Source: a virus (taxonomy: Duplodnaviria > Heunggongvirae > Uroviricota > Caudoviricetes). From it: a stretch of 64,000 nt of DNA. Each line of letters opens with the position of its first letter. Positions within the stretch are counted from its first letter, which is position 1. Position numbers and translations under genes: made by a program. Positions 10,704 to 61,759 of the stretch are shown in pieces. Below the pieces are notes generated by a model. The model did no database searches and was not told the DNA's origin. It saw only the letters and a program-made list of their open reading frames with translations. Location of the stretch: positions 17,301 to 81,300 of IMG/VR virus record IMGVR_UViG_3300044678_002996; one strand, written 5' to 3'.

Positions 10704-11366
10704 TCATTTTAGAAACTCCAGTATTTGGTCTGATGGGCAGTATAGTACAGATTGTGTCGCAGCGGCCCCAGAGGATTGGACCCCCACTAACTTATCGTTG
10801 TAGAGTACAGCTCCGCCGCTTAGTCCGTCAATAACTTTGCCCTTTAATTTAAGGCACGGAAATCCATTTTCCTTGGTAATGACTTCTTTGTAATTTGGGT
10901 TAGTCATCTCATTCTTAATCATATCTTCAGACAGGGCATACCCATATGAGATATAACCCCGCTCTGCCAGAACAGCAAATTGGGCTAACTCCAAGAATCT
11001 AATATTCTCTTGAGGTTTTTCTGGAAAGTCAAGAATCATTATGTCTCGCTCTGAGTCAAATTTGGTGACTTGCAGCTTATATCTTGCGGACAAGTGTTTG
11101 TCAATGCTGTAGATTGAGCAATTAACTTCTTCTACTTTCTCGGAACCTAAGAGGGCATGCCAACAGGTTATTACTCTAAGTTTTTCAGAATGCTTAATAA
11201 CTGTGCCCGAGAACATTTCTATTCCTGCGGATTTCTCCACAGACAGCTTTACGTGGGGCCAGAAATCTTGAGCAAAAGATTGGGAGGCTAAAAGTAAAAC
11301 AAGCAGTAATGTCCTAATAATCATATCTTGCTTCCTAGTGGTTCTGGGATTGGGCAGTGCCCCCAT
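10704..11366 (-). CDS. secreted trypsin-like (S1) serine protease
   Basis: Signal peptide IIRTLLLVLLLASQSFA. His-motif TCWHAL. Ser-motif GLSGGAV (GDSGGP-like). Confidence 0.6.
   Translation of the reverse strand: MGALPNPRTTRKQDMIIRTLLLVLLLASQSFAQDFWPHVKLSVEKSAGIEMFSGTVIKHSEKLRVITCWHALLGSEKVEEVNCSIYSIDKHLSARYKLQVTKFDSERDIMILDFPEKPQENIRFLELAQFAVLAERGYISYGYALSEDMIKNEMTNPNYKEVITKENGFPCLKLKGKVIDGLSGGAVLYNDKLVGVQSSGAAATQSVLYCPSDQILEFLK
11086..11100 (-). repeat. co-oriented motif copy (TTGCGGACAAGTGT variant)
   Basis: Member of the T-run + GCGGACAATTGT family. Lies inside the protease gene and reads HLSAR in frame. Confidence 0.4.
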
Positions 11367-12194: not shown

Positions 12195-12902
12195 ATGCGT
12201 TCCATAAAACACAGAAAGATTAAAATGCGAAGAGAATTAGTGTACTTACTTGGATATTTTTATGCAGATGGTTATTTGTCGGGTAAAAAATATAAATATC
12301 CTATTTTAGAAATGATCAGATCAGATTCTGAAAATATCATATACTGTTTAGAAAAAATTAATTCCAGATTTACAGTAAGCTATAGATTTAGAAAAAATAG
12401 TAAAAACGAACAAGCGTGCATAAGGCTATCGTCATCTGATGAAAATATTGATCTTTTCAAGAATGTATTGATGGATAAAGTAAATATGTCAAGAATCTTA
12501 AATTTTATCAACAGTGATAATTTTTGTTATTTTTTACGCGGGTTTTTTGACGGTGATGGATGTATTAATATTAGTAAAAACAAAAGTAAAGGGCGAATGT
12601 ATTTTTATGGTTCGTTTGAACAAAGGTGGGAATTGGTTTTTGATATTTTAAAAAAGCTAGAAATCAAATATACTTTTCAACAAATTGTCAGAAAAAATGG
12701 ATCGCACAAAAGCACGCATATTTGTATATCTAACAAGCATGGTATAAATCTTTTGTACGAATACATTTATCCAAATAGAGTTTATGATTTTGGCCTTTTA
12801 AGAAAGTATGAAAAACTGAATTCTATCAAAGGTAATATTAAACATAAGCATATTGTCACACATACAGATTCGCAGATTGCCAGTAAAATAAAAACTTATT
12901 AA
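12195..12902 (+). CDS. LAGLIDADG homing endonuclease (two-motif, free-standing)
   Basis: Two LAGLIDADG motifs, LLGYFYADGYL and LRGFFDGDGCI. AT-rich. Opposite strand to the flanking genes. Confidence 0.8.
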   Translation: MRSIKHRKIKMRRELVYLLGYFYADGYLSGKKYKYPILEMIRSDSENIIYCLEKINSRFTVSYRFRKNSKNEQACIRLSSSDENIDLFKNVLMDKVNMSRILNFINSDNFCYFLRGFFDGDGCINISKNKSKGRMYFYGSFEQRWELVFDILKKLEIKYTFQQIVRKNGSHKSTHICISNKHGINLLYEYIYPNRVYDFGLLRKYEKLNSIKGNIKHKHIVTHTDSQIASKIKTY

Positions 12903-12903
12903 G

Positions 12904-13239
12904 TCAGCCGTATACCATCTCATCTTCTTCTCCATCTATTGTCGAATATGAAGTAGACCCGTCATCCTCAAGGGTCGCTTCCACGACTCCCTTTTCGCAC
13001 AATCTACGTAGAGTGAAATCTACTATTAATCGAGATATTCTATCTCGCAATTCCTCATCTGACACATCAGACTTACAGGATTTTAGGGCGTAATAAGTTA
13101 TGAACTCGCCCACATACCCCTCGAATAACTCCGGCTCATGATCATAAGCAATTAAACACACTTCTAGCATCTGTTCTTCGTTAAGCATAACCCACCAAAT
13201 TCTAGTAAAAGTACGTAAACACACCATTCTCTTAACCAT
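12904..13239 (-). CDS. hypothetical acidic protein
   Basis: 111-aa ORF. Confidence 0.4.
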   Translation of the reverse strand: MVKRMVCLRTFTRIWWVMLNEEQMLEVCLIAYDHEPELFEGYVGEFITYYALKSCKSDVSDEELRDRISRLIVDFTLRRLCEKGVVEATLEDDGSTSYSTIDGEEDEMVYG

Positions 13240-13259
13240 GATAGCTAGTTTGGTGTTTT

Positions 13260-13700
13260 GCAGGGATTAGCCTGAAAGTACCAAAAATTGCAAATGGTTA
13301 AAAGTCCACATATCAAACTGAGCCCGATTTCTAATAGCTATCATAGTGGTTGTGCCGCCAATGTGAGCGGAGGACGCTGGAATTTCACAGACGCCTATTC
13401 ATTACTGAATTCACGAGCTATTACCGAGTCTACGGGATTTCTCCCTACAGGACGTGTTATTTCCTGTTCTCTAAAGCCAGTCTATTGGGCAAATGTCCGC
13501 ACACTCTGTGGGGCTCTGAGAGCCTTGTGGAGTTGACCACCCGATAACCCCTAACGGTTTATCAGCCTGTGGGTGAATTGCGTCAGACGCTTTCCTGTGG
13601 GCCCACAGATGATATTCTCGGCACAATGCCGAAGGTTTGATTTTTTGGACAAATGACCGCATTGATATGCGACACGCAGATTACTCAACGTGGTTGACAG
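13260..13700. ncRNA. candidate structured non-coding RNA (GC-elevated, no credible ORF)
   Basis: About 440 nt containing only short mutually overlapping ORFs. GC is visibly higher than the flanks. Several GC-rich inverted repeats, for example CCTGTGGGCCCACAG. Confidence 0.3.
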
Positions 13701-13812
13701 AGACAGAGTCTCCATAGTATAATACACCAGAGGCGGTCGATTTTTGGCATTTTTTCAGAAAAATTTTGAAAATTCCCAAAAAACATAGGTCTTTGGCAAA
13801 TGTTTTGTTTTT

Positions 13813-13829
13813 TTTAGTGTAATATATAG
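13813..13829 (+). promoter_or_regulatory. TTTTAGTGTAATATATA motif (second copy)
   Basis: Same motif as 12167 and 27597. About 45 nt upstream of the ATG at 13875, followed by an AAGAAGAAA RBS-like tract. Confidence 0.35.
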
Positions 13830-13874
13830 TGGGAAGACATCCCACACTCAAACTTAAAAACGAAAGAAGAAATA

Positions 13875-14201
13875 ATGGCAAGTTACGAATACAGCTCAAG
13901 CAACAACAATAGAGTAGTTACACAGGCTGGGCAAATCATAACGGGAGCTAATACCCCAGACACACGCCAGCACACAAATAAGTACGGGCGAGTTAATGGC
14001 GTTACTGCTATCGATATCCTAACAGGGGCAGTCACTTACAATGCTCTCCAAGGATCTGGTTATGGATTTTCTATTCCATTTACTGGAGTTCCAGCGGATA
14101 AAGAAGTAGATGCCCAAAACGATCCATATAGAGTTCCAGCAAGACTTACTGTTTTGGGTGGAATTAATCCAGTTTCCTATAATCATTCAACAGCTCACTA
14201 A
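13875..14201 (+). CDS. hypothetical protein
   Basis: 108-aa ORF, first gene of the rightward island. Confidence 0.5.
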   Translation: MASYEYSSSNNNRVVTQAGQIITGANTPDTRQHTNKYGRVNGVTAIDILTGAVTYNALQGSGYGFSIPFTGVPADKEVDAQNDPYRVPARLTVLGGINPVSYNHSTAH

Positions 14202-14212
14202 AAGGTAAAAAT

Positions 14213-14464
14213 ATGGACTTTCTTAAAAAACTAAAAGATGTTTTTGCTAAAAGTGTCCCAGACACTTCGCCAAGTGGTAAAGTTGACAGCACTGACTTGG
14301 CAAAAGTTAGCAAGACTGGTGTGCTTGTCGGGGTTGCAGCTACTTTATCATATTTGATAACGACAATTAATCCAGTAGCTCTTGGGCCGTATCAACCTTA
14401 CGTTATGTTGGGTTTGACTATTGGTCTCGATTTTGTAAATAAGCTTATTAAATCTAATTCATAG
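14213..14464 (+). CDS. small membrane protein (holin-like candidate)
   Basis: 83 aa with two hydrophobic helices: VLVGVAATLSYLITTI and VMLGLTIGLDFV. Confidence 0.4.
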   Translation: MDFLKKLKDVFAKSVPDTSPSGKVDSTDLAKVSKTGVLVGVAATLSYLITTINPVALGPYQPYVMLGLTIGLDFVNKLIKSNS

Positions 14465-14473
14465 GAGAAACAA

Positions 14474-14800
14474 ATGCCAGATTATAATGAAATCATAAAA
14501 AGTATCGTGGATAACTGGCAGCTAGCTTTAGGGGCGACCGGCATTGTCGGCGCCCTATTTTTTGATAAAATTAAGGCTAATCTAGCTAAGATTAATTTCT
14601 CAGCAGTAAAGTCTATTTTGCCCAAAAGGAAAGTTACTGCTAAAGATTCTAAAGCGGTCGAAGCTCGTGATATTGAAGCAATTGCCCATCTTAGAGACAG
14701 AGCTGTGGCTTCTGGGGACGAAACATTACTGCAAGAGATTAAGAGTGTAGCTTCTAAGTTTTTTGATATGCACAGCAAAAAAGGAAATACTAATGAGTAA
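14474..14800 (+). CDS. hypothetical protein
   Basis: 108-aa ORF with an N-terminal hydrophobic stretch. Confidence 0.45.
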   Translation: MPDYNEIIKSIVDNWQLALGATGIVGALFFDKIKANLAKINFSAVKSILPKRKVTAKDSKAVEARDIEAIAHLRDRAVASGDETLLQEIKSVASKFFDMHSKKGNTNE

Positions 14801-15221
14801 TTTTCTAAAAGTATTCATCTTAATGGTTTTGGTTTCTGGGTGTGCGAAGCAAGATGTTCCCGCTCCGGCATATAAGATAGAGGTTGTACAGTTAAGCGAG
14901 ATAGCCACTAAGGTTAGAGACGCCGCTAACGAAGATCAAATAAGCAATAAAGACCTTGGGATTTGGTATTCTATCTACAAAGGTACGTATCTTTATGGCA
15001 AAGAGTTTGATTTCGAAGGGCAGAAAGACTTTGGGGTTATCTTTGATAAACAAGTAGCTGTGCGTGATAAACTGATGCCTAATAAAACTGTTAAGTTTAA
15101 AGAGGTGGTGAATTCTGTGTTCGAAAAGTATAAAGAATTGGAATATAACGACACAAATCAAAGCAAATTTCTTGAAGAAGTTTCCTCTATTGCGGATGGA
15201 ATTAAAGCGGGGATTGACTAA
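14793..15221 (+). CDS. lipoprotein (signal peptide + lipobox)
   Basis: Internal Met MSNFLKVFILMVLVSGC gives an LVSGC lipobox. Start chosen at that Met rather than the ORF-track start 14763. Confidence 0.5.
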   Translation: MSNFLKVFILMVLVSGCAKQDVPAPAYKIEVVQLSEIATKVRDAANEDQISNKDLGIWYSIYKGTYLYGKEFDFEGQKDFGVIFDKQVAVRDKLMPNKTVKFKEVVNSVFEKYKELEYNDTNQSKFLEEVSSIADGIKAGID

Positions 15222-16105
15222 TGCCTCATAACAATACAGGCTGGATATCAGATCCAGACACAGTTGATTCAGTTTGTGAATCTTTAACGAATGGCATTTT
15301 TGGGGCAGCAGCCCCTCATTTGCTAAATGAAGGCAAGGGAAAGACCGTACTGCTTTACGAGAGTTACAAAGCAATTGGTATGGAATTTCCTGTATTGAAT
15401 CAGGGGCAGGTTGGAACTTGCACCTCATTCGGTATAGCGGGAAGTGTTGACACCCTTAAAGCAACTGAAATTAAAAAGGGCGAACGTTCAGAATTTAAGA
15501 ACATAACTGCGACTGAGCCTATTTATTATGGGGCTAGAAAGCTAAACGGCTGGCGTATTAACGGAGATGGGGCTTCTGTGGCTCTAGGCGTTAAGTACGT
15601 TGGTACATTCGGCACGGTGGCTCGTGGTAAGTATAATTCAGTTGACCTTAGTAATTATAGCGAGACTAGAAGTCGTCAGTGGGGCAATAACTCCGGATTT
15701 CCTAAAGAAATTGAAGAAATCTCAAAAGATTATATCATTGAGCAATACGCTCGTGTTACTTCTTATGATATGTGTAGAGATTCAATAGCCTCTGGATATC
15801 CAGTAGTAATTGGAAGCAATCAGGGCTTTTCAAATGTGTGTAATAATGATGGAGTAGCTAAGGCCAGTGGAAGCTGGGGTCACTGCATGTTTGCGTGTGG
15901 AATACGGGGCGACAAAGATTTGGTTCTTATCGTAAATAGCTGGGGGCCAAACTGGAATAGAATGCCCGTACGCAAGTTTAATGAGCCGAAGGGTTCATTT
16001 TGGGTAGAGGCCAGTGTTATAGATAGAATGTGCAAGCAGGACGCGTGGAATCTTGCAGCCCACAAGGGATATCCTAAAATAATCAATACGGAAGTAGCTT
16101 GGTAG
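15221..16105 (+). CDS. papain-like (C1 family) cysteine peptidase
   Basis: Catalytic elements in papain order: Q...GTCTSF (Gln/Cys), WGHCMFACG (His), VNSWGPNW (the Asn NSWG motif). Confidence 0.6.
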   Translation: MPHNNTGWISDPDTVDSVCESLTNGIFGAAAPHLLNEGKGKTVLLYESYKAIGMEFPVLNQGQVGTCTSFGIAGSVDTLKATEIKKGERSEFKNITATEPIYYGARKLNGWRINGDGASVALGVKYVGTFGTVARGKYNSVDLSNYSETRSRQWGNNSGFPKEIEEISKDYIIEQYARVTSYDMCRDSIASGYPVVIGSNQGFSNVCNNDGVAKASGSWGHCMFACGIRGDKDLVLIVNSWGPNWNRMPVRKFNEPKGSFWVEASVIDRMCKQDAWNLAAHKGYPKIINTEVAW

Positions 16106-16111
16106 GTAAAA

Positions 16112-17014
16112 ATGAAAAAACTGTTGTTTATAATCGGAATGCTGTTGCTTATAAACAGTGGCATGGAAAAGAGTGACCCAAAGCCCAACATAAACACTAG
16201 CTCATATATTTTTGAGCCAGACTCGTTGGCTATTGCATCTTTGATGAATTTTATGGGCAGTGTAAAAGCCGATGAAGTAGTTTCTTCAGAGTGTAAGTGT
16301 GACAAGTCGACAGGCTTGATATCTTATGATGGCGGTACTTCTAAAACCAAATGCGAGTGTTCTGTGGGCGGAAAGCCTTGTGGATGCGTAAATTGCACCT
16401 CTGGGGCGACTGCCGAAGAAGTTCAGACAGAAACAGTTTCTAGTGGCATAGATGATTCTGTGAAGGCCCTAAAGCGTCTTTACAAGACTTACTACGTTAA
16501 GAAGATGACTGCTTCGTGGTGTGGCCCGTGTGCGACTTGGCAAAAATCAATTTACCCTTCATTTGAATTTTTAGGGATTGAAGTGAAAGAAGTTGATATC
16601 GAGTCTGGTGAAGCTAAGGCTGATGTCAAGCTAATAGAACCAGATGTCGTGCCGTACTTTTTGATTTGCACAAAGACAGATGATTTTTATCATTATAAGT
16701 CTGACAAAGATTTTTTTGGCTATAGGGGTTCAGACTTTTCTGCAGAAAAGGCCACAGAGCTTATGTTCGAGCTTGACTCAGGTCTGCACCCCAATTTGAA
16801 AGAGGGTATTTGGTACGAAAAGGCCCAAAAAGAGCAATCTTCTCTTAACGGCAAAAAGTGGGCAGAAGTTAAGGACTATGTTTCTTACCTAAGAACGTCT
16901 AAAGACAAAGACAAATTCGAAAAATGGCCGCTAGAAAAGCTTTCATTCTACGAACTTAAGGGTATCTTTGACGATCTGCAGGCTGAAAAACTAGGGGTGA
17001 TGCATGGAATTTAG
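16112..17014 (+). CDS. secreted thioredoxin-fold protein (WCGPC) with N-terminal Cys-rich region
   Basis: Signal peptide MKKLLFIIGMLLLINSG. Cys cluster CKCDKS...CECSVGGKPCGCVNC. Thioredoxin active site WCGPCATW. Confidence 0.6.
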   Translation: MKKLLFIIGMLLLINSGMEKSDPKPNINTSSYIFEPDSLAIASLMNFMGSVKADEVVSSECKCDKSTGLISYDGGTSKTKCECSVGGKPCGCVNCTSGATAEEVQTETVSSGIDDSVKALKRLYKTYYVKKMTASWCGPCATWQKSIYPSFEFLGIEVKEVDIESGEAKADVKLIEPDVVPYFLICTKTDDFYHYKSDKDFFGYRGSDFSAEKATELMFELDSGLHPNLKEGIWYEKAQKEQSSLNGKKWAEVKDYVSYLRTSKDKDKFEKWPLEKLSFYELKGIFDDLQAEKLGVMHGI

Positions 17015-17297
17015 CCTAAGCACTCTTCAATCTTTATTGGTTGACAAGAAAGTTCAAGTAGACGAAGGGGTTTATCTTTGTTCTGATGCCAGCACAATTA
17101 AAACTGTGATGACAGTTAATGATGAGAAAGAGATCGTCATAGAATTTGACGCTCCCTTTACTTATCTACACGTAGAAAAGATCGGCCCGAAGAGGTTGCT
17201 TAATCTTGTAAAGCCTCGCGTTGAAGTTATCACTATTTCAGACACATCCATAAAAGTTAAGCTAAGCTCACTTGGCGAGTGGGAGTTTGAAAGATGA
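17004..17297 (+). CDS. hypothetical protein
   Basis: 97 aa, overlaps the upstream gene by 11 nt. Confidence 0.45.
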   Translation: MEFSLSTLQSLLVDKKVQVDEGVYLCSDASTIKTVMTVNDEKEIVIEFDAPFTYLHVEKIGPKRLLNLVKPRVEVITISDTSIKVKLSSLGEWEFER

Positions 17298-17587
17298 TAA
17301 CATACGAACAGTATCTGGCAGAGTGTACTAGCAATGATACACTGCTATTTACCGGCAAGAGAAATAAAAAGAATAAGCCAATCAAAGAGAAGAGATTCAA
17401 CCAGACTCGTGATTTTATCGGCAAAGAAATTGCTAATAGTAATTACTCTACCAGAGAAGAAGCAGAGTCTGATCTCGAAATTAAAATACAGAAGATGGAT
17501 CCAGTAACTTTTTTCCTTTTTAGAGTCCTGATAGGATGGTTAATAGGAAAATTGTTAGATGGATATTTCGGCCTAAGAGACCAATAA
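17294..17587 (+). CDS. hypothetical protein with C-terminal hydrophobic helix
   Basis: 97 aa, 4-nt overlap coupling. Confidence 0.45.
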   Translation: MITYEQYLAECTSNDTLLFTGKRNKKNKPIKEKRFNQTRDFIGKEIANSNYSTREEAESDLEIKIQKMDPVTFFLFRVLIGWLIGKLLDGYFGLRDQ

Positions 17588-18064
17588 GTCAAGGCTATTT
17601 ATAATTCGGTCGACGTCCACTCTTTCGAAGGACGGGCTTTTTTGAAGCTCGTCCTTATTTTTTTTGCCCAATACGAAATCAGTAAGTTCATTAAGAATGT
17701 CATCGGAAAAATGACCAAGGTACGATAAAAGCTCTTGTTCGGCTTCATTTTTTGGTTCATAGCTAAGCCCGTATGCGTGCTCTAAAGGCACCTCTGTCTC
17801 TGAATAGTATCGCTGATCTTCTATCATTCTTTTTAGGGCGTTAGATAAAGACTTCTTGACAAAGAAGAAAATATTTCCACGCTTAGGGTCAAACTTTTCT
17901 ACACATCGCCCAATCGTGATGTATAATTCGGACTTAATTTCGTCATAAGATAGATGCTTGTAGAACGCTCGCGGGACGAGTCTCATCTGCCCACTAATAA
18001 ATCCATAATTTTTAGCGAGCGACTCAAATGTTGGGGTTTCATTTCTGTTCATACAATTCTCCAT
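17573..18064 (-). CDS. small sigma factor (sigma-70 region 2-like; phage late sigma, gp55-like candidate)
   Basis: ITIGRCVEKFDPKRGNIFFFVKK resembles the sigma-70 region 2.1-2.2 signature GxxGLxxAvEKFDPxRGxxFstYA. Confidence 0.5.
   Translation of the reverse strand: MENCMNRNETPTFESLAKNYGFISGQMRLVPRAFYKHLSYDEIKSELYITIGRCVEKFDPKRGNIFFFVKKSLSNALKRMIEDQRYYSETEVPLEHAYGLSYEPKNEAEQELLSYLGHFSDDILNELTDFVLGKKNKDELQKSPSFERVDVDRIINSLDLLVS
17619..17660 (+). terminator. putative intrinsic terminator at the convergent junction
   Basis: Stem CGTCC...GGACG followed by GGCTTTTTTG, immediately after the last plus-strand gene. Confidence 0.4.
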
Positions 18065-27654: not shown

Positions 27655-28458
27655 ATGAAAAAATGTACAGAGTGTTTGGTTGAATTAGAGCTTTCAAGTT
27701 TCTCAAAATCAAAAAACGGAAAAATGGGATTGAGAGAGAAATGCAAGCGATGTTGTTCTTATCTAAGTAAGATATACAGAGAGAAAAACAAAGGCAAATT
27801 ATTGCAAAAAACTAAAGAGAAAAATGCGGCTCGTGCAAAAAATGGGTACTACACAAGTTATAGACAGAGCAATAGCAAAAAGCTAAAAGAATATAGGGGA
27901 AAATATTATCTAGAGAATAAGCAAAAAATTAACAAAATGACCGCTGCTTATTACGAAAATAATAGATTAAATATTCTTAAGCAAATGAAAGAATACAGAG
28001 ATTCAAATAAAGACTTAATTAAAAAGAGAAAGCGTAAGTACGCATTAGAAAATAGAGAAAAAATTAATGCGCGTGTACGGTCTAGAGAAAAACGTGGATT
28101 ATCCGCAAATACGAAATTACGCGGAGTATTGCGGGCACGAATACGCGTAGCATTAAAATCTTACAAAAAGTCAGAATCAACCAAGCGATTAATTGGATGT
28201 GACTTAGACTTTTATAGGAATTATCTCGAATCAAGATTTACTAAAGGTATGACTTGGGAAAAACATGGTAAAAATGGTTGGCATATTGATCATATAATTC
28301 CATGTTCAAAATTTGATTTATCTGATTTAGAACAAAGAAAACTGTGTTTTCATTATACCAATACAATTCCTAGATGGGCAACGACAGCTATAGCAATTGC
28401 TCATGGTGAGACACTGGAGTATATTGGCAATCTAGAAAAGAGTGATAAAATTATTTAA
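27655..28458 (+). CDS. HNH homing endonuclease (free-standing) with repeated basic KxYR modules
   Basis: HNH core GWHIDHIIPCSKF. N-terminal CxxC...CxRCC. Internal K/R-rich repeats. Opposite strand to its neighbours. Confidence 0.75.
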   Translation: MKKCTECLVELELSSFSKSKNGKMGLREKCKRCCSYLSKIYREKNKGKLLQKTKEKNAARAKNGYYTSYRQSNSKKLKEYRGKYYLENKQKINKMTAAYYENNRLNILKQMKEYRDSNKDLIKKRKRKYALENREKINARVRSREKRGLSANTKLRGVLRARIRVALKSYKKSESTKRLIGCDLDFYRNYLESRFTKGMTWEKHGKNGWHIDHIIPCSKFDLSDLEQRKLCFHYTNTIPRWATTAIAIAHGETLEYIGNLEKSDKII

Positions 28459-45353: not shown

Positions 45354-46951
45354 TCTAATCTCCCCCTTATTTCGCCCAAAGTAGTTTTGTTAAACTGCAC
45401 GCCATTTTCAAACATAACTTTCAACTCACCACCAAGTTCTTCCTCAGGTGTGCAATCATTCTTAAGGGTTAGTTTTCCACCCTTATCTTTGACTACAGCA
45501 AGCAAGCCCTTCGCAGATTTTTTATGGCCACCTGTTTTAGGATCTTTGAAGATAGGCTTAGCCTTCCCATCAATTTCCACATAGGTAGCCTTACAGGCGA
45601 TACTGAAAGTATCACGAGTATTGTACTGGTATGTGTAAGATCCCACGCCGAATACTACGTTTGTGGATGCGAAACCCTTGTGTTTCAACCGATCACAAAT
45701 TTGTTCACATCGAGTGAAAGTAATACTGTCACCATAAATTAGCCCAATATGTGGATCTAATTCAAGATACCCCTTTGAGTTTTTGGTCGCCCCAAAGGTT
45801 TCAGCAAGGATCTGAATAGAGCCCTTCACTTCATCCTCAGTAAGTTCTTGACAGGTTATATCAAAATACTTATTATCTGATGTTTTAACAGCGTCGAAGG
45901 TCTCGGTGCCGTCGTTATTCCACAACTTAATATGGAACGGAGTTCTTCTTACCAACTGAAGATAATCGTCAGAGGTTTGTTTTACATTCTTAACAATGTA
46001 CCCAGTCACAATCTTAACTGGGTCACCGCTGTCGGGCCGAATTACGACCTTACCATTACGGGCCATAATCTTAGATTTAAGGGCCGGTAAGATTTTCTTA
46101 AGGACGTTCCAGTAATCCCATGTATCACTTACGATGGACACAATACCCGCAGGATACACATCCTCAATAATTCTGCGGAATGTTTCTTCTTCTGATTCAT
46201 CCCCACCCGCACACATTACACTGTGTTCAGTAGCTGGTACACTACATCCCACCAATTCTTCGTCGATATTCGCCCCGTAGAATTCCTCAAGGAACTCAAT
46301 AGCTGAGACTGTATCCGTCCCGACGAAACTTAGTAGGTGGGCTGCCCCACTAACGTATCCAGTTTCAACGCTACTCATTCCCCGCATGGAGAAGTCGTGG
46401 CACTGGAAATTAACAAACGGGCAGTTGTCGGAAGTCTCAGCGGCGTACTTGGATACCAACTTCTTAAACTGATGGGCGATAGTGGCTGACACGATAGCTT
46501 GCCACATTACCGTCTGAGTCAAGGTTTCGAGGAAGTTCGTGACCCAATAGAATTCATGCTTTGTGTTCACGATTGTCATGAACGGCACTTGAATTGGGCA
46601 CAATGTTCCTTCGGGCAAAGCCTTCAGGCGAATTGGCAAGTAGCCCAAATCGTGCAGACTTTCCATAGTCTTTGTGCTTACTGAGTCTTTGCCAGTAACA
46701 GCGTCCATCATTCGCTTGAATTTTGCAACAACCTTCTCTTTCGGCTGAGAGAAGAACCGCTCATTCCAGTTACGAATGAAGTATTCCTCAACCAGATATT
46801 GCGTGCCGAACACTACGATTGAATCCACGCCTTCCATTCGCGACGAGCGAGCGGTAGTATTGGAATACACCACTTGCGTCTTTGCAGGGTATTGTGGCGG
46901 GTGAGAGAACTTGTATACGTCGGCGAGTAGTTGTGGACTTGGTTTGAACAT
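45350..46951 (-). CDS. nadV: nicotinamide phosphoribosyltransferase (NAMPT/NadV)
   Basis: N-terminal ADVYKFSHPPQYP matches the NAMPT DSYKxTHxxQYP block. 533 aa, typical NadV length. Confidence 0.75.
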   Translation of the reverse strand: MFKPSPQLLADVYKFSHPPQYPAKTQVVYSNTTARSSRMEGVDSIVVFGTQYLVEEYFIRNWNERFFSQPKEKVVAKFKRMMDAVTGKDSVSTKTMESLHDLGYLPIRLKALPEGTLCPIQVPFMTIVNTKHEFYWVTNFLETLTQTVMWQAIVSATIAHQFKKLVSKYAAETSDNCPFVNFQCHDFSMRGMSSVETGYVSGAAHLLSFVGTDTVSAIEFLEEFYGANIDEELVGCSVPATEHSVMCAGGDESEEETFRRIIEDVYPAGIVSIVSDTWDYWNVLKKILPALKSKIMARNGKVVIRPDSGDPVKIVTGYIVKNVKQTSDDYLQLVRRTPFHIKLWNNDGTETFDAVKTSDNKYFDITCQELTEDEVKGSIQILAETFGATKNSKGYLELDPHIGLIYGDSITFTRCEQICDRLKHKGFASTNVVFGVGSYTYQYNTRDTFSIACKATYVEIDGKAKPIFKDPKTGGHKKSAKGLLAVVKDKGGKLTLKNDCTPEEELGGELKVMFENGVQFNKTTLGEIRGRLE

Positions 46952-46960
46952 TTCAAATTC

Positions 46961-47440
46961 CTATGGATGAACGAGATGAACTTTGGTTACGAATGGTAGA
47001 AGGTTGGCTAACGCCCGTGGGCCGTTTTTAGCCTTTTCTTTGATTACTTCGGCCCCAACAGATTGAGGGCGACCTTTATCTCTTTCGATACAGAGATATT
47101 CATCCGCTGTGAATACTACTAACTCAATATCATAAAGAGGGTCAAAATTAACAGCAACTTGCGTGAAGATTTCGAGTGAGTATTTGTTGTTAATGCTACC
47201 TGTGTCGAACACTATGAGCTTACGCCCATCTTTTAGGGCCGCGAAGACCCGCTCCTTTGCCTCTTGCACAGCCCGCTTGTAGAATTCCCCATGTTTTTCA
47301 TGAGTATATCCCGGATAAGACTCCTTGATTTTATCGGCTGAGATGATGTATTCTTCATCATAATGCTCCTGAAGCCACGTACTTTTACCAGCCGCTGGTA
47401 AACCAAAGGTACAAACAAATTTAGCCATCGCACTTTCCAA
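46961..47440 (-). CDS. P-loop kinase (polynucleotide-kinase/AAA_33-like kinase domain)
   Basis: FGLPAAGKSTWLQEHYDEEYIISADKIK resembles the T4 Pnk kinase-domain N-terminus (GCPGSGKSTWA...NRDD). Confidence 0.45.
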   Translation of the reverse strand: MESAMAKFVCTFGLPAAGKSTWLQEHYDEEYIISADKIKESYPGYTHEKHGEFYKRAVQEAKERVFAALKDGRKLIVFDTGSINNKYSLEIFTQVAVNFDPLYDIELVVFTADEYLCIERDKGRPQSVGAEVIKEKAKNGPRALANLLPFVTKVHLVHP

Positions 47441-47690
47441 CTTCTATGAATTGTACTGTTGTGTAAGTTCTTGTGGGAATTACGATTTCTTTGCCGTCAA
47501 GTAGGAAGATCTCAGTGCCTTTGTCGCCCCAACCCATATACTCGGCCCCAAAGTATGAGAACGAGCGGTCTTGACAACAAGCCATGATATGCTTTACAAC
47601 GTGATCAGAAGTGTGGCAGATACATTTACATGGATAATTAGGATCCACATAGATTATATCATATCTGTGTTTTGTCTTTAGGTGTTCCAC
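47421..47690 (-). CDS. hypothetical Cys/His-rich small protein
   Basis: 89-aa ORF. Confidence 0.3.
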   Translation of the reverse strand: MEHLKTKHRYDIIYVDPNYPCKCICHTSDHVVKHIMACCQDRSFSYFGAEYMGWGDKGTEIFLLDGKEIVIPTRTYTTVQFIEVGKCDG

Positions 47691-48448
47691 ACCCGTCCCT
47701 TTCGAGTGTAAATCTGTTGGTAATGACCCAAAAGGGCCCCTAACCCTTGTGAGAATATTCCATGACTTACATAAAGGATCAGCTTATTGGGACCGCAGTG
47801 GGCGACTGCTTTCGCCACCTCGATGAATGTACGTCCTCCGTCGCACAGGTCGTCGCATACGAGAATGTTTTTCCCAAAAGGTATGTTGGGTACGATAGTC
47901 TCAAGAATATGTCCAGTAGCCTCGTCGCGTATTTTCTCTGCGACGATGAATTCTTTGGCGGACAATTGTGAGTATCTCGCCGCCGCCCCTTTGTCGGGCA
48001 ATAGCAGAAGGTCAATTCCCTCGCGTTCGACAATGTCCGCAATATTCTGTTGTGGCAGTGTGTTCACCAACTTAATATTGCGGTATTGGTCGAAGAACGC
48101 AGGATTGTGGACGTCGAACGTATGAAGTTCACATTTGCCCATCATCTCAGCAAAGAAATGTAGAGCCCAGCAAGATGTGTTTACAATACCTTTATCCTGC
48201 CTCGCGTAAGGAAGATATGGGACGTCCCAGATAACTAGCTGGTTGGCGGGTTCCTTTATCTTCATCCTTTCTACGAAGTAGAGCAGTTGGAAGATGTGCA
48301 GCAACTCATACTCGTCCTCAAATTCCCAGTGAATTCGCAGTACGTCTTCCTTAAAGGCATTTAGTAGCCCTTCGGGCTGTTTCCAGACTTGAGATGTCTT
48401 ATCTGGAAATCTTGTAACGTTCAGAGTAAATCCGTTTATATGTATCAT
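47678..48448 (-). CDS. type I phosphoribosyltransferase-fold protein, PRPP-synthetase-like (Prs/Adps-like)
   Basis: PRPP-binding loop ILVCDDLCDGGRTF. Length 256 aa. Adjacent to nadV. Confidence 0.55.
   Translation of the reverse strand: MIHINGFTLNVTRFPDKTSQVWKQPEGLLNAFKEDVLRIHWEFEDEYELLHIFQLLYFVERMKIKEPANQLVIWDVPYLPYARQDKGIVNTSCWALHFFAEMMGKCELHTFDVHNPAFFDQYRNIKLVNTLPQQNIADIVEREGIDLLLLPDKGAAARYSQLSAKEFIVAEKIRDEATGHILETIVPNIPFGKNILVCDDLCDGGRTFIEVAKAVAHCGPNKLILYVSHGIFSQGLGALLGHYQQIYTRKGRVWNT
47951..47969 (-). repeat. co-oriented motif copy TTTGGCGGACAATTGT
   Basis: Inside the Prs-like gene. Encodes QLSAKEF. Confidence 0.45.
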
Positions 48449-53866: not shown

Positions 53867-54141
53867 AGCTTACAAACGACTGTTCTCTTGTGTGCCTGAA
53901 ACATATTCTGGCAAATACAACACTGATTCCAATAATTGCCATTCTCATGGGAGAAGTCTTCAGGCCAATTTCTTGAGAGCACTTCCCCATTGATAATCAG
54001 AATGGACATCGCTGGGAATTCCTCAATAGGTGGGACTTCATTGAGGATCGTTAGATGGCTGTATTCGGCGATCACTTCTTTTGCGGACAAACGCCTGATG
54101 TAAGGGGCATCATTATGTCGAATAATACAGATCACGGGCAC
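53839..54141 (-). CDS. hypothetical protein with C-terminal CxxC pairs
   Basis: 100 aa with CCICQN...CKLC. Confidence 0.35.
   Translation of the reverse strand: MPVICIIRHNDAPYIRRLSAKEVIAEYSHLTILNEVPPIEEFPAMSILIINGEVLSRNWPEDFSHENGNYWNQCCICQNMFQAHKRTVVCKLCTVERGSA
54078..54092 (-). repeat. co-oriented motif copy TTTTGCGGACAAACG
   Basis: Inside the gene 53839..54141. Encodes RLSAKEV. Confidence 0.4.
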
Positions 54142-55082
54142 GCTCCACAGGGAGTATGGAGAATTGGCAATCCCGCCCCAACTGAAGGGCGAACTAATTC
54201 TGGATTATCTTTCATCCATTGTTGTACGAACCATAATTGCCCACAACCACCGCCCACATCATCTTGCCCAGCGGGGTCGAAGACTCTTACATTATATCCA
54301 GCGTCCAACATCTTGGAGCTGAAATTTGTGGCTAATTCCCGCTGATGGTCATTCTTAGCGGGTAAGCCTTCATTACGCTCACAGATCACACTAATAGTGC
54401 ATTCCCAAATATTTGGGTCAAATTGAGCTTGTAGCCGTGCAACATCTTCATCAGATGTATTGTCGTCCGCCGCACAATAGTTGAAGAAAGGTTTACGCCC
54501 TGTAGCCATTCGCCACATAAATCCCTCATAACCAATGTTATTAAGAGATAGTTTGGCTTTAAACGGGATGAGCTTATTCCGCTCTTCATCAGTAGATTTG
54601 TGGACAGAAAACTGCAGGCCTACAGTTGGGACATCAATTGACAACCTGCGAAGTGGGTCGTAATCAATATCTGGTCCGATTGTACTAATCAACAAAGCTG
54701 CATTGGGGTACTTACTGTATAGTACCCGTATGGCGATTTCAAGATTCTTGAAGTTGAGTAGAGGCTCGCCCATACTCATAAACATAATCTGCAATCGCCC
54801 CATTGACAGTGGGTCTACTCCAGTTTGCCCAATTGAGTAGTCCACTTGTTCAACAATTTCGTCCGCTGTAAGGGATCTTACAAAAGCATCCCCTGCCCCG
54901 CAAAATCTGCATCCCACAGGGCATCCAGATTGCGTTGAACAACAGATAACAGTCCGCGTGGCGTAATCGGGGTACTTGTAGAGTACACTTTCTGCCACAG
55001 CATTATCCTTGGTATACACAAATTTGCACACCGAGGATTCTGAACTGTCAATACGCTTGATATCATTCCAATAAGTAAGCAT
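54132..55082 (-). CDS. rlmN: radical SAM enzyme, RlmN/Cfr-like RNA methyltransferase
   Basis: CCSTQSGCPVGCRFCGAG gives the CxxxCxxC cluster in an RlmN-like context (RlmN SSQVGCxxxCxFC). MSMGEPL matches RlmN MGMGEPL. Confidence 0.65.
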   Translation of the reverse strand: MLTYWNDIKRIDSSESSVCKFVYTKDNAVAESVLYKYPDYATRTVICCSTQSGCPVGCRFCGAGDAFVRSLTADEIVEQVDYSIGQTGVDPLSMGRLQIMFMSMGEPLLNFKNLEIAIRVLYSKYPNAALLISTIGPDIDYDPLRRLSIDVPTVGLQFSVHKSTDEERNKLIPFKAKLSLNNIGYEGFMWRMATGRKPFFNYCAADDNTSDEDVARLQAQFDPNIWECTISVICERNEGLPAKNDHQRELATNFSSKMLDAGYNVRVFDPAGQDDVGGGCGQLWFVQQWMKDNPELVRPSVGAGLPILHTPCGACP

Positions 55083-57266: not shown

Positions 57267-57273
57267 AAGAAAA

Positions 57274-57358
57274 TGGGCGTGATAGGATTCGAACCTATTA
57301 ACCCCGAAGGGAGAGGATTTACAGTCCCCTGCAGCTCGCCAGCCTCTGCCGCACGCCC
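57274..57358 (-). tRNA. tRNA-Tyr (anticodon GUA), type II with long variable arm
   Basis: Acceptor GGGCGTG/CACGCCC. Anticodon stem GGGGA/TCCTC with loop CTGTAAA. T-arm ATAGG-TTCGAAT-CCTAT. Length 85 nt. Confidence 0.8.
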
Positions 57359-57376
57359 AGCCTAAGCCTTTAGGCT

Positions 57377-58108: not shown

Positions 58109-58136
58109 GTGGACCCGGCGGGAATTGAACCCGCGT
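58109..58136 (-). other. tRNA 3'-half fragment (T-arm + 3' acceptor strand) lacking a 5' partner
   Basis: GCGGG-TTCAATT-CCCGC followed by CGGGTCCA. No matching 5' acceptor strand within tRNA distance. Confidence 0.3.
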
Positions 58137-58341
58137 CTTGCATAAAAAAGAGCAATAGATTCGTTCACAAGTTTAGGGGCGAACGCCCCGGTTCAAGTGG
58201 ATATTACAGAACGTCCTCAATTTGGATAACAGGGCAATGAGGGGCCCCGAGACTATGCAGCCTGAGCAAAAGTTTTTGCTTTTATTTTTTAATCGACTTT
58301 TAAAGTGGCCGGTCGATCAACCACTACCTGCATCTATTACA

Positions 58342-58746
58342 CTATTTACCAATCAATACCTGTCGGGCCCGTGGTGGCACTTTGTCTGCCTTTTCAAGAT
58401 TACATAATTCACATAACACTTGTCTATTATCTGAAGAGTCTTTCCCTTCTCTTGCTATAGGAATTATATGGTCAACTGTCATAGCGACCAAATCTGCGGA
58501 GACTATCATAATACTCGGAAGAGACTTGTTAGTTCGTGGTTTGCCCACAAATATATAGTCGCCTCTACGAGGGCAATAAGAACATTTAGCCCCCATATTG
58601 ACCACCTGTTTGATTCTCCTTAATTTCCTTCCAAGTGATAGTTCACGAAATACTGCGATATCAAACGGGATTATTCTGTAATCAGAATATTTGATTAACA
58701 GATCAATTTCGGAAGAAAATAGGTTGTCGATACAAGTATTGTCCAT
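58342..58746 (-). CDS. HNH endonuclease
   Basis: CSYCPRRG...VDHIIPIAREGKDSSDNRQVLCELCN (HNH with Zn-ligand cysteines). Confidence 0.7.
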   Translation of the reverse strand: MDNTCIDNLFSSEIDLLIKYSDYRIIPFDIAVFRELSLGRKLRRIKQVVNMGAKCSYCPRRGDYIFVGKPRTNKSLPSIMIVSADLVAMTVDHIIPIAREGKDSSDNRQVLCELCNLEKADKVPPRARQVLIGK

Positions 58747-58748
58747 CT

Positions 58749-59204
58749 CTATTTCCTGAAGTGATTACGCCTTAAGGACATCAAACATTCACCCAACAAG
58801 TTTGTGCCCCACTTTGCTTTGTTCGCGAGGGCATCTTTGGCGGCGAACCCAATACCCAAAATTTTATCTGTGGGCGACGCTTCTACTAGGACTTCATCTT
58901 TCTTGAACGACTCTTCGAGGGCAACCCGGAACTCTTCACACGCACTGAACTTAATCTCAAGGGCAAACATCATTGAGGGGATCTTGAGGTCATCCCATTT
59001 CTCTTCTGAGAAGTTTCTGACCGATCGCCCTGCGTTCTTCGCGTCACGCGGAGTTGGGGCAACTCTTATGTTTTGGAGTGCCACTATGTCGTGGAATGCA
59101 GCCCCTTTGAGGGCCATAAAGATTTTCTCAGAAGTGAAAGCCTCGTTACCATTGATAGGGTGAAAGTTTGAGAAAACTCCGCCCCAGAAGAATTTGTAGT
59201 TCAT
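58749..59204 (-). CDS. NADAR/YbiA-like (DUF1768) domain protein
   Basis: FFWGGVFSNFHP...FTSEKIFMALKG matches the NADAR N-terminal signature. Confidence 0.6.
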   Translation of the reverse strand: MNYKFFWGGVFSNFHPINGNEAFTSEKIFMALKGAAFHDIVALQNIRVAPTPRDAKNAGRSVRNFSEEKWDDLKIPSMMFALEIKFSACEEFRVALEESFKKDEVLVEASPTDKILGIGFAAKDALANKAKWGTNLLGECLMSLRRNHFRK

Positions 59205-59548
59205 TTTTCCGCCGATATTAGGTAGTCTGTAAATGAGTCTGCATACTTAATTCTGTAAGACTCATTTGTGTTTATGGTGTTCCACACTTCCTCACTACAC
59301 GATAAGGTAAGTGTTTTGCCGCCTTTGCATTCAAAAACGGCCATAAACTCAGTCCGCTGGTTGGCCCCGATTTTGGTATATACCTTTGTGCATACGCCCT
59401 CACTTTGTGTTTGATTTCCAAGCCCCAGTGGCCCTAACGCGGGTACTAATAGGGCTATTAGAATACAAGTTATGCCGATTACTACGAGCACCTCAACGAG
59501 AGTAAAGCCGCGTCTAGTCATTCTCAATTGCTCCGGCGAAGGCATCAC
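59201..59548 (-). CDS. type IV prepilin/pseudopilin-like protein
   Basis: Class III signal RRG|FTLVEVLVVIGITCILIALLVPA (G-FTLxE plus a hydrophobic helix). Confidence 0.55.
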   Translation of the reverse strand: MMPSPEQLRMTRRGFTLVEVLVVIGITCILIALLVPALGPLGLGNQTQSEGVCTKVYTKIGANQRTEFMAVFECKGGKTLTLSCSEEVWNTINTNESYRIKYADSFTDYLISAEK

Positions 59549-60778: not shown

Positions 60779-60849
60779 AAGGGCGGGAAGGATTCGAACC
60801 TTCGCTACTGGAATCAAAATCCAGTGTGCTACCGTTACACCACCGCCCT
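60779..60849 (-). tRNA. tRNA-Gln (anticodon UUG)
   Basis: Acceptor AGGGCGG/CCGCCCT. Anticodon stem CTGGA/TCCAG with loop TTTTGAT. T-arm GAAGG-TTCGAAT-CCTTC. Confidence 0.8.
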
Positions 60850-61686: not shown

Positions 61687-61759
61687 TGGTGCCGCTGAGA
61701 CTTGAACTCAGGTCTTCGGATTTAAAAGATCCGTGTAATAGCCACTATACTACGACACC
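61687..61759 (-). tRNA. tRNA-Lys (anticodon UUU)
   Basis: Acceptor GGTGTCG/CGGCACC. Anticodon stem CGGAT/ATCCG with loop CTTTTAA. T-arm CTGAG-TTCAAGT-CTCAG. Confidence 0.8.

Follow-up and report, generated by a model that had tools for sequence, protein, structure and literature searches.

In a 64,000-nt stretch of a larger phage genome (from IMG/VR record IMGVR_UViG_3300044678_002996), called here the window, eight plus-strand genes, g1-g8, form an island at positions 13875-17587. It is tentatively proposed that this island is an envelope-directed module centred on g5, a predicted C1A cysteine peptidase, and that it may act from the periplasm, with lysis as the likeliest role. In lysis, g5 would serve either as an endolysin equivalent or as an accessory enzyme cutting protein tethers. 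A sequence-only reading of this DNA had offered two interpretations, i.e., an unconventional lysis cassette and a periplasm-directed set of protease and disulfide chemistry. The second of these fits the results well. It agrees with the predicted export signals of g4 and g6, the anchored forms of the peptidase among relatives (52 of 207), the conserved secreted partners, and the CxxC-bearing thioredoxin fold of g6.

The island and its cysteine peptidase

The window encodes ribonucleotide reductase, NAMPT, RNA ligase, and many glycosyltransferases and methyltransferases, and almost all of its genes are on the minus strand. In the island, where eight plus-strand genes had been reported, eight tightly packed open reading frames (ORFs) were indeed called, and the GC skew is flipped over 14-18 kb. 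Signal peptides and the lipobox were called from hydropathy and motif only. Homologous loci are labelled L and homologous proteins P. The features of the unit are as follows.

13817..13845, plus strand: promoter-like box GTGTAATATATAG, then hairpin GTGGGAAGACATCCCAC, about 30-60 nt upstream of g1
13875..14201, plus strand: g1, 108 amino acids (aa), soluble, Cys-free, no assigned role; homologues at the same position in L002 and L023
14213..14464, plus strand: g2, 83 aa, small membrane protein; kept in L002, L022, L023, and L024
14474..14800, plus strand: g3, 108 aa, N-terminal Gly/Ala-rich hydrophobic segment at residues 17-33
14793..15221, plus strand: g4, 142 aa, predicted exported protein; an upstream TTG start at 14763 gives 152 aa
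15221..16105, plus strand: g5, 294 aa, predicted xylellain-type C1A cysteine peptidase, no signal peptide
16112..17014, plus strand: g6, 300 aa, predicted exported protein with a Cys-rich module and a thioredoxin fold
17004..17297, plus strand: g7, 97 aa, soluble, no family matches; kept in L002, L022, L023, and L024
17294..17587, plus strand: g8, 97 aa, tail-anchored, with a basic N-terminal region and a C-terminal transmembrane segment at residues 71-87; kept in L002, L023, and L024
17628-17656, plus strand: intrinsic-terminator-like hairpin with a 13-bp stem and a T run after g8, which closes the unit

Homologues of all eight ORFs were found in the same order in L002 (peptidase 49-50% identical), and the eight are therefore regarded as real genes. 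No family in Pfam, PHROG, NCBIfam or PADLOC was assigned to g1. The exact g5 protein is on record in two metagenomic contigs of 68 kb and 109 kb, and a cluster member at least 90% identical to g5 was found on a 180-kb contig. Megablast of positions 13500-18000 against 50,697 phage records gave no match.

The g5 product is, by its model and its matches, a xylellain-type short C1A peptidase with predicted catalysis. A search of PDB with the single g5 sequence recovered xylellain (3OIS) at E 8e-6. The Cys motif, NQGQVGTCTSF, was aligned to the active-site motif of xylellain and cathepsin K, and the segment carrying His and Asn was covered by matches to chymopapain and ficin. The full papain catalytic set, which had been read in order from the letters, was borne out by an alignment of 28 sequences, in which Q61, C67 (GTCTSF), H221 (WGHCMF), N239, and W241 (NSWG) are invariant. 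C67 is the only conserved Cys in this alignment. An N-terminal segment with a GW..DP motif (residues ~7-50) is conserved as well. Structure prediction of 15221..16105, the check that had been suggested, gave a two-lobe papain-like fold by AlphaFold2 (predicted local distance difference test score 92.8), whose closest structural neighbours are general proteases and not muralytic families. In BFVD, weak matches of g5 (template modelling score ~0.5) to phage proteins annotated as peptidoglycan-binding or muramidase were found, which serve as a lead only.

In Pfam, g5 was not matched by PF00112, and PF13529 (C39_2) reached 17.5 bits, below its cut-off of 24. In precomputed annotation, PF00112 was matched by several homologues, i.e., P0007, P0008, P0010, P0011, P0014, P0038, and others. 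Because this model misses g5 and yet hits these homologues, the g5 family is, as judged from sequence, a divergent C1A branch partly covered by Pfam. Lysozyme, transglycosylase, amidase, CHAP, NlpC/P60, M15, and M23 families were not matched by g5 in Pfam, PHROGs, and NCBIfam.

Papain-like C1 peptidases had been described as rare in phages. This holds for deposited records, since tblastn of g5 against the 50,697 phage records gave one weak match, in an unannotated 595-kb uncultured phage. It does not hold for metagenomes: a profile search of 1.84 billion representative proteins collected 1,065 clusters at E<=1e-30 and 2,447 at E<=1e-10, with clusters defined at 50% identity. Nor does it hold for the literature, in which xylellain-type C1A genes are recorded in Myoviridae and Siphoviridae, with no function given (PMC10380794). 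Muralytic papain-like enzymes fall in a different cluster (PMC10318531). The homologue P0040 had no tblastn match in the deposited phage records, and no g5 relative was found by a search of IMG/VR.

The family occurs in different location forms. No N-terminal extension is present in 132 of 207 members, like g5, whereas the extension of 52 includes a hydrophobic anchor and, in many cases, a Pro-rich linker behind it (8 twin-arginine-like), and 17 have an extension without a transmembrane segment. N-terminal transmembrane or twin-arginine-like signals were seen in P0038-P0043, P0045, and P0046, and the twin-arginine signal of P0045 is clear. In the anchored forms, the catalytic domain is therefore predicted to lie outside the cytoplasm.

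Intein-sized inserts were detected in 39 of the 207 members, some with LAGLIDADG endonuclease motifs. The intein of P0089 lies directly before the catalytic Cys (..IGD/C...HN/CVSFG), and that of P0082 directly after the catalytic His (..WNH/C...HN/CM), while P0111 has inteins at both sites. Such placement at the catalytic Cys and His shows that phage populations conserve the active site strongly.

Conserved partners of the peptidase

The gene set around the peptidase is conserved in related phages. In L022, L023, and L024 (peptidase 48-59% identical), g2-g7 are kept, and g8 is also found in L023 and L024. The block of L022 and L024 runs in the same direction as its neighbours, so the conserved feature is the cassette and not the inversion. 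A further gene near the cassette, found in the window (10704-11366, minus strand), L002 (6203-6793), L022 (9682-10278), and L023 (2511-3185), codes for a secreted protease of the trypsin-like type (Trypsin_2) that bears a signal peptide. It is a second exported protease of the cassette neighbourhood in these four large-phage relatives.

Distant homologues, with 33-41% peptidase identity to g5, were located in prophages and in phage contigs carrying portal, capsid, tape-measure, tailspike, and integrase genes; the GC content of their DNA is 51-72%, except for L017 (34%). Directly upstream of the peptidase, a secreted protein, named here partner A, is encoded in all 12 distant loci (L004-L010, L012-L017; two near-duplicate pairs included). 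Partner A has ~217-255 aa and combines a signal with an Ig-like beta domain, a poly-Pro linker, and a helical domain. In the loci examined for this, i.e., L007, L010, and L013, the stop codon of partner A overlaps the start of the peptidase gene. Downstream of the peptidase, one or two signal-peptide CxC-rich proteins and small membrane proteins follow in L004, L006, L007, L009, and L013, and a signal-bearing protein with 4-7 Cys in L014 and L016. No obvious CxxC was seen in the downstream Cys-rich protein of the distant phages. Homology of g4 to partner A was considered and not supported by hhalign (probability 0.14%, E 0.42); the two are treated as positional equivalents only.

The module comes after tail-fibre or tailspike-like genes in L004, L006, L009, and L016, ahead of an integrase gene in L004, and next to the onset of bacterial-type genes in L014 and L016. 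Virion genes surround it in L007 and L010, where it overlaps flanking late-operon genes of the same direction by 4-8 nt. L007 also encodes an S49 prohead protease. No PHROG families were found for the neighbours in the distant loci. A defence or anti-defence system was rejected as an identity of the set, with no PADLOC match for the eight island proteins, partner A or P0040.

The g6 protein was confirmed as a signal-peptide protein with a Cys-rich module and a WCGPC thioredoxin site. It is composed of an N-terminal hydrophobic signal or anchor (residues 1-20), a Cys-rich module (61-95), a thioredoxin fold (~112-225), and a C-terminal domain (226-300). The Cys-rich module, CxC...SYDGGxS...CxC..GG.CxC..C, has seven Cys. 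The thioredoxin fold is supported by structural matches, with SoxS among the best. In the WCGPC site, C137 and C140 are invariant in the family, as is P181 of an (I/V)P.F motif at the cis-Pro loop position. The CxxC is kept in g6 of L002, L022, L023, and L024, with varying middle residues; across g6 relatives the dipeptide is GP, PP, AP, LH, VP or GS. Because of this variation, the redox potential of g6 is not considered to be fixed. The C-terminal 75-residue domain (LHPN...WPLEKLSxYELK) is conserved and has no known relatives. In P0068, a 455-aa g6 homologue on a 2.7-kb contig, this domain is swapped for an S-adenosylmethionine (SAM)-dependent methyltransferase domain.

The g4 protein had been called a lipobox lipoprotein, and the motif supports this in the present phage, where the Cys of the lipobox VSGC is Cys17, counted from the ATG at 14793. 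The lipobox is shared only with the closest relatives, P0070 and P0072. The Cys is absent from P0073, P0074, and the proteins of L002 and L023, which have ordinary signal peptides, and in L022 and L024 a Cys is found inside the hydrophobic signal region only, with no standard lipobox. Thus, the outer-membrane lipid anchor of g4 is not conserved. A weak PDB profile match of g4 to a Peptidase_M75-domain protein (E 0.0012) was not relied on.

Of the small membrane proteins, g2 had been described as a holin-like protein with two transmembrane segments. One segment, at residues 36-52, is clear; the second, at ~61-77, is weak in this phage, with less than 1.4 on the Kyte-Doolittle scale over 17 residues against more than 1.5 in relatives. 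No holin family was matched by g2 in Pfam, PHROGs, and NCBIfam, and it is holin-like by shape only. In g3, the charge is -2 before the transmembrane segment and +7 after it, so that its C-terminus is predicted to be cytoplasmic by the positive-inside rule. The C-terminal helical region of g3 is conserved (HLRDRA...EIKSV..KFFD).

Lysis and its alternatives

In the proposed lysis role, g5 would be synthesised cytoplasmically and would gain access to the periplasm once g2, g3, and g8 have made the inner membrane permeable at a late stage of infection. Its substrates there would be envelope proteins, or possibly peptide links of the wall, and their cleavage would help progeny release. In the oxidising periplasm, thiol-disulfide chemistry would fall to the exported g6, which might ensure that Cys67 stays or becomes reactive, or might target envelope proteins with disulfide bonds. 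The g4 protein, or partner A in distant relatives, may be a periplasmic cofactor, docking factor or inhibitor.

The lysis role is favoured because, in five distant loci, the module comes after tail-fibre or tailspike-like genes, a usual place for lysis cassettes, and because it is translationally coupled to upstream late-operon genes. It is also favoured by the split of the family into signal-less and anchored forms, which is, by analogy, a pattern known for endolysins. No other endolysin was seen in the DNA available. In Pfam, 102 window ORFs of at least 75 aa, i.e., the eight island genes, the ten largest ORFs, and 84 further ORFs, gave no lysozyme, transglycosylase, amidase, CHAP, NlpC/P60, M15, M23, holin or spanin. 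Precomputed Pfam annotation of L001-L008 and L022-L024, for the part of each genome that is visible, likewise contained no endolysin, holin or spanin. The suggestion of an unconventional lysis cassette is thus plausible by position, by coupling, and by the lack of another endolysin in this DNA. A literal assignment of holin, i-spanin, and o-spanin to these genes did not stand, given the g3 topology and the g4 lipobox.

Several observations weigh against lysis. Cleavage of peptidoglycan is not known from any C1A enzyme. The eight island proteins gave no match to a holin, spanin or endolysin family in Pfam, PHROGs, and NCBIfam, and g2 is only weakly hydrophobic. The 64 kb read here belong to a genome of at least 109-180 kb, and a conventional endolysin may lie elsewhere in it. 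The anchors of many homologues are strongly hydrophobic and joined to Pro-rich linkers, so they look like permanent tethers and not like releasable signal-arrest-release (SAR) sequences. The position among virion genes in L007 and L010 also fits other late functions. The methyltransferase fusion of P0068 is odd for a periplasmic protein, although it may be an assembly or gene-call artefact.

The main rival is a non-lytic periplasmic set for envelope remodelling or exclusion, which would modify or destroy surface or periplasmic proteins, such as receptors, pili or transporters, during infection or lysogeny. Its purpose would be to block superinfection, to stop progeny re-adsorption or to re-tool the envelope. 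It draws on the same extracytoplasmic evidence, i.e., the anchored homologues. In temperate relatives, the module sits beside tail-fibre genes and prophage ends, where exclusion and conversion genes also cluster, as known from T5 llp and cor-type genes, and exported lipoproteins are typical exclusion factors. In the window, the unit is surrounded by genes for glycosyltransferases, methyltransferases, and a secreted trypsin-like protease, a setting suggestive of activity directed at the envelope. However, the gene overlaps and shared direction with late-operon genes in L007 and L010 point to late lytic expression and not to expression in a lysogen. The presence of the module in both temperate and apparently lytic large phages, and the inteins in many homologues, fit a core function better, and no similarity to known exclusion proteins or PADLOC models was found. 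Envelope remodelling or exclusion is held to be doubtful. A cytoplasmic role for g5 is clearly unlikely. In that case g5 would act on host or phage proteins, for take-over, anti-defence or maturation, and the exported neighbours would merely share its operon. It would explain why g5 and ~64% of the family have no export signal and why, with C67 as the only conserved Cys, the family lacks the kind of conserved disulfide found in secreted C1A enzymes of eukaryotes; general proteases as best structural neighbours also suit it. However, a quarter of the homologues are anchored or twin-arginine-like, with the catalytic domain predicted outside. The secreted partners stay linked at peptidase identities down to 33-41% and across a GC content of 33-72%, which chance co-location would not give, and capsid maturation in L007 is already covered by its S49 protease.

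A classical four-part Gram-negative lysis cassette, with g2 as holin, g5 as peptidoglycan endolysin, g3 as i-spanin, and g4 as o-spanin, is largely rejected and has the lowest standing among these explanations. Gene order and sizes are lysis-like, g4 has its lipobox in this phage, and g3 and g4 overlap by 8 nt. The sole match of the island to a lysis family is a faint one of g4 to the Rz-like phrog_456 (E 0.084). The spanin pair is rejected on the predicted cytoplasmic C-terminus of g3, which is the opposite of an i-spanin, together with the non-conserved lipobox of g4. The missing holin, spanin, and endolysin families, and the lack of a muralytic precedent among C1A enzymes, speak against the remaining parts.

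Flanking DNA, host hints, and known systems

The sequence element that had been noted ahead of the island was located, i.e., GTGTAATATA at 13817-13826. Three exact copies are present in the 64 kb (12172, 13817, and 27603), all on the plus strand and each followed, within a few tens of bases, by a plus-strand unit. These units are a free-standing LAGLIDADG endonuclease gene, the island, and an HNH-type ORF. Allowing one mismatch, 8 copies were counted in the window against a chance mean of 4.5, and 11 of 100 shuffles reached 8, so that the element is not over-represented. A variant, GTGTATTATA, heads two leftward units. Within the window, the box class is limited to the island, the two homing-endonuclease genes, and these two leftward units. 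In an extended form, GTGTAATATATAGTGGGA...TCCCA, the box is also kept ahead of g1 in L002 and L023, and related boxes, GTATAATATTGTAGGAA and TGTATAAATTAGTAGGAA, are found at the same place in L022 and L024, respectively. The version of L024 contains TATAAAT, which is the core of T4 late promoters. A promoter function of the box is inferred from sequence, and by analogy the box class may indicate late timing of the unit. The terminator-like hairpin after g8 is the strongest site in the 6.2 kb scanned. With the upstream box, conserved in relatives, and this terminator, the island looks like one transcription unit with its own promoter class, from 13817 to 17628.

In L022 (5996-6048) and L024 (3689-3753), a strong GC hairpin with a T run was observed between a g1-like gene (195-210 aa) and g2, which suggests a separately terminated, possibly abundant transcript of the g1-like gene. 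The LAGLIDADG homing endonuclease gene (12195-12902, plus strand) and the HNH-type ORF (27655-28458, plus strand) are the sole other plus-strand units of the window. Mobile elements were also observed in the relatives, i.e., an endonuclease-like ORF (297 aa) inserted between g4 and the peptidase gene in L023, and inteins interrupting the ribonucleotide reductase genes of L002 and L023. Convergent with the island, an ORF of 163 aa (17573-18064, minus strand) has a middle region, FDPKRGNIFFFVKKSLSNALKRMIEDQ, that resembles sigma-factor region 2 or T4 gp55 by eye. No Pfam or NCBIfam match was obtained for it; it could be a factor that reads GTGTAATATA-type boxes.

Between the island and the leftward gene at 12904-13239, a GC-rich noncoding stretch of ~480 nt is located (13240-13715, minus strand). 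It begins just past the leftward GTGTATTATA box (13727-13718) and extends into the start codon of the leftward gene. Strongly conserved blocks, e.g., AGGGAGAAATCCCGTAGACT, ACCGTTAGGG, and GACTGGCnnTAGAG, are shared with the gap at 7640-8080 of L002, and the z-score of the minimum free energy is about -2.2. No Rfam match was obtained at gathering score or E<=1, and RNase P, a group I intron or another known RNA was rejected. A P4-like pairing candidate was dropped, as it showed no covariation with L002, and a pattern scan of IMG/VR gave no match. The stretch could be a long structured leader or a new noncoding RNA.

Host hints came from a scan of one genome per prokaryotic species, in which 9 close loci were found. 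Five of them are on contigs of metagenome-assembled genomes (MAGs) labelled Planctomycetota, i.e., Fimbriiglobus, Tepidisphaeraceae, Gemmataceae, and two Planctomycetia. Two of these five, L014 and L016, pass into bacterial-type genes immediately behind the module. The contigs with the remaining labels (Saccharibacteria, Sphingorhabdus, Bacteroidota, and Acidimicrobiaceae) look like phage DNA, and MAG binning is therefore unreliable in both directions. The link of the distant relatives to Planctomycetota phages is apparent and depends on these unreliable labels. In the window, a small protein (59201-59548, minus strand) carries a prepilin-type N-terminal cleavage and methylation motif, RRGFTLVEVLVVIGITCILIALLVPAL. 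We take its N-terminus to resemble those of Planctomycetota and Verrucomicrobiota, a weak hint from which the host is not established.

Other genes of the window were also recorded. A transfer-messenger RNA gene with the tag AKTFAQAA was found at 58109-58370 (minus strand, Rfam 71.5 bits). Five tRNA genes, all on the minus strand, are located at 1141-1214, 1386-1459, 57273-57359, 60779-60849, and 61687-61759; one tRNA has an apparent four-base anticodon (ttca) and may be frameshift-suppressor-like or a mis-call. Auxiliary genes (39734-41560, 45350-48448, 54132-55082, and 58749-59204, all minus strand) encode a ThiF-like E1 beside a JAB-like protein, NAMPT and a phosphoribosyltransferase, a radical SAM enzyme, and a NADAR domain protein. 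A 670-aa protein was also recorded, which along its whole length shares 41-44% identity with proteins of large phages of Bacillus and Serratia.

The g5 family was compared with known systems. Xylellain of Xylella fastidiosa (PDB 3OIS) is a bacterial chromosomal enzyme with a poorly defined role, whereas the present family is phage-borne. Compared with xylellain and other short bacterial C1A enzymes, the phage family has its own GW..DP motif, its own gene partners, and many anchors or inteins. Endolysin cassettes with SAR or signal-bearing enzymes, i.e., P1 Lyz and phage 21 R21, resemble the island in combining small membrane proteins with an enzyme needed beyond the inner membrane. A further resemblance is the occurrence of family members with and without N-terminal anchors, and in five distant loci the module lies after tail-fibre or tailspike-like genes. 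P1 Lyz keeps its catalytic Cys caged until thiol-disulfide isomerisation activates the enzyme, an arrangement akin in concept to the pairing of a Cys enzyme, g5, with a CxxC protein, g6. However, g5 belongs to a protease family and not to the muramidases, amidases, transglycosylases, CHAP or NlpC enzymes. The island also has no holin, antiholin or spanin homology, the anchors of its relatives are mostly strongly hydrophobic with Pro-rich linkers, and its two dedicated exported partners have no counterpart in endolysin cassettes.

Mycobacteriophage LysB and other 'third-step' lysis enzymes offer a functional analogy. The shared idea would be an enzyme that severs the link of an outer layer to the wall and leaves the glycan and peptide meshwork alone, which would suit a protease directed at tether proteins of the envelope. 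LysB itself, a serine esterase whose substrate is mycolyl-arabinogalactan, has no sequence or fold relation to g5. Baculovirus V-cath is likewise a C1A peptidase encoded by a virus. V-cath is synthesised as an inactive precursor and serves at a late stage, breaking down host structures so that progeny are released. In contrast to the envelope role considered for g5, V-cath is of the eukaryotic cathepsin type, has an I29 prodomain, is insect-derived, and acts on host tissue. The g6 protein shares with SoxS, TlpA/ResA/DsbE, and DsbA the thioredoxin fold, the CxxC at the start of helix 1, the cis-Pro position, and an export signal. It differs from these periplasmic proteins by the CxC-rich module in front and the novel 75-residue domain behind.

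The C1A fold family and its presence in tailed phages are already known (PMC10380794). In literature searches, no description was found of the cassette, its fixed secreted partners, the three-module Cys-rich/thioredoxin protein, the anchored and signal-less peptidase forms, the inteins at catalytic residues or the apparent link to Planctomycetota phages.

A wider reading, somewhat unlikely at present, would be a new lysis strategy of widespread uncultured phages, many apparently on Planctomycetota. A periplasmic C1A protease and its exported Cys-rich/thioredoxin partners would dismantle envelope proteins, such as disulfide-linked wall proteins or outer-membrane tethers, instead of or beside a muralytic enzyme. 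Should the module prove lytic, the known phage lysis enzymes would come to include a protease class, accompanied by a periplasmic redox accessory: g5 would be the first 'endolysin' of the protease type, and g6 a redox helper that the phage itself encodes to assist lysis in the periplasm. It would also point to a way of opening the envelope in poorly studied hosts, e.g., Planctomycetota, whose phage biology is almost unknown. The g4, g5, and g6 proteins are small, well-modelled, and suited to biochemistry and expression-lysis assays. A non-lytic module would still define a large, uncharacterised family of phage proteins with fixed partners, two delivery modes, i.e., cytoplasmic and anchored, and inteins at catalytic residues.

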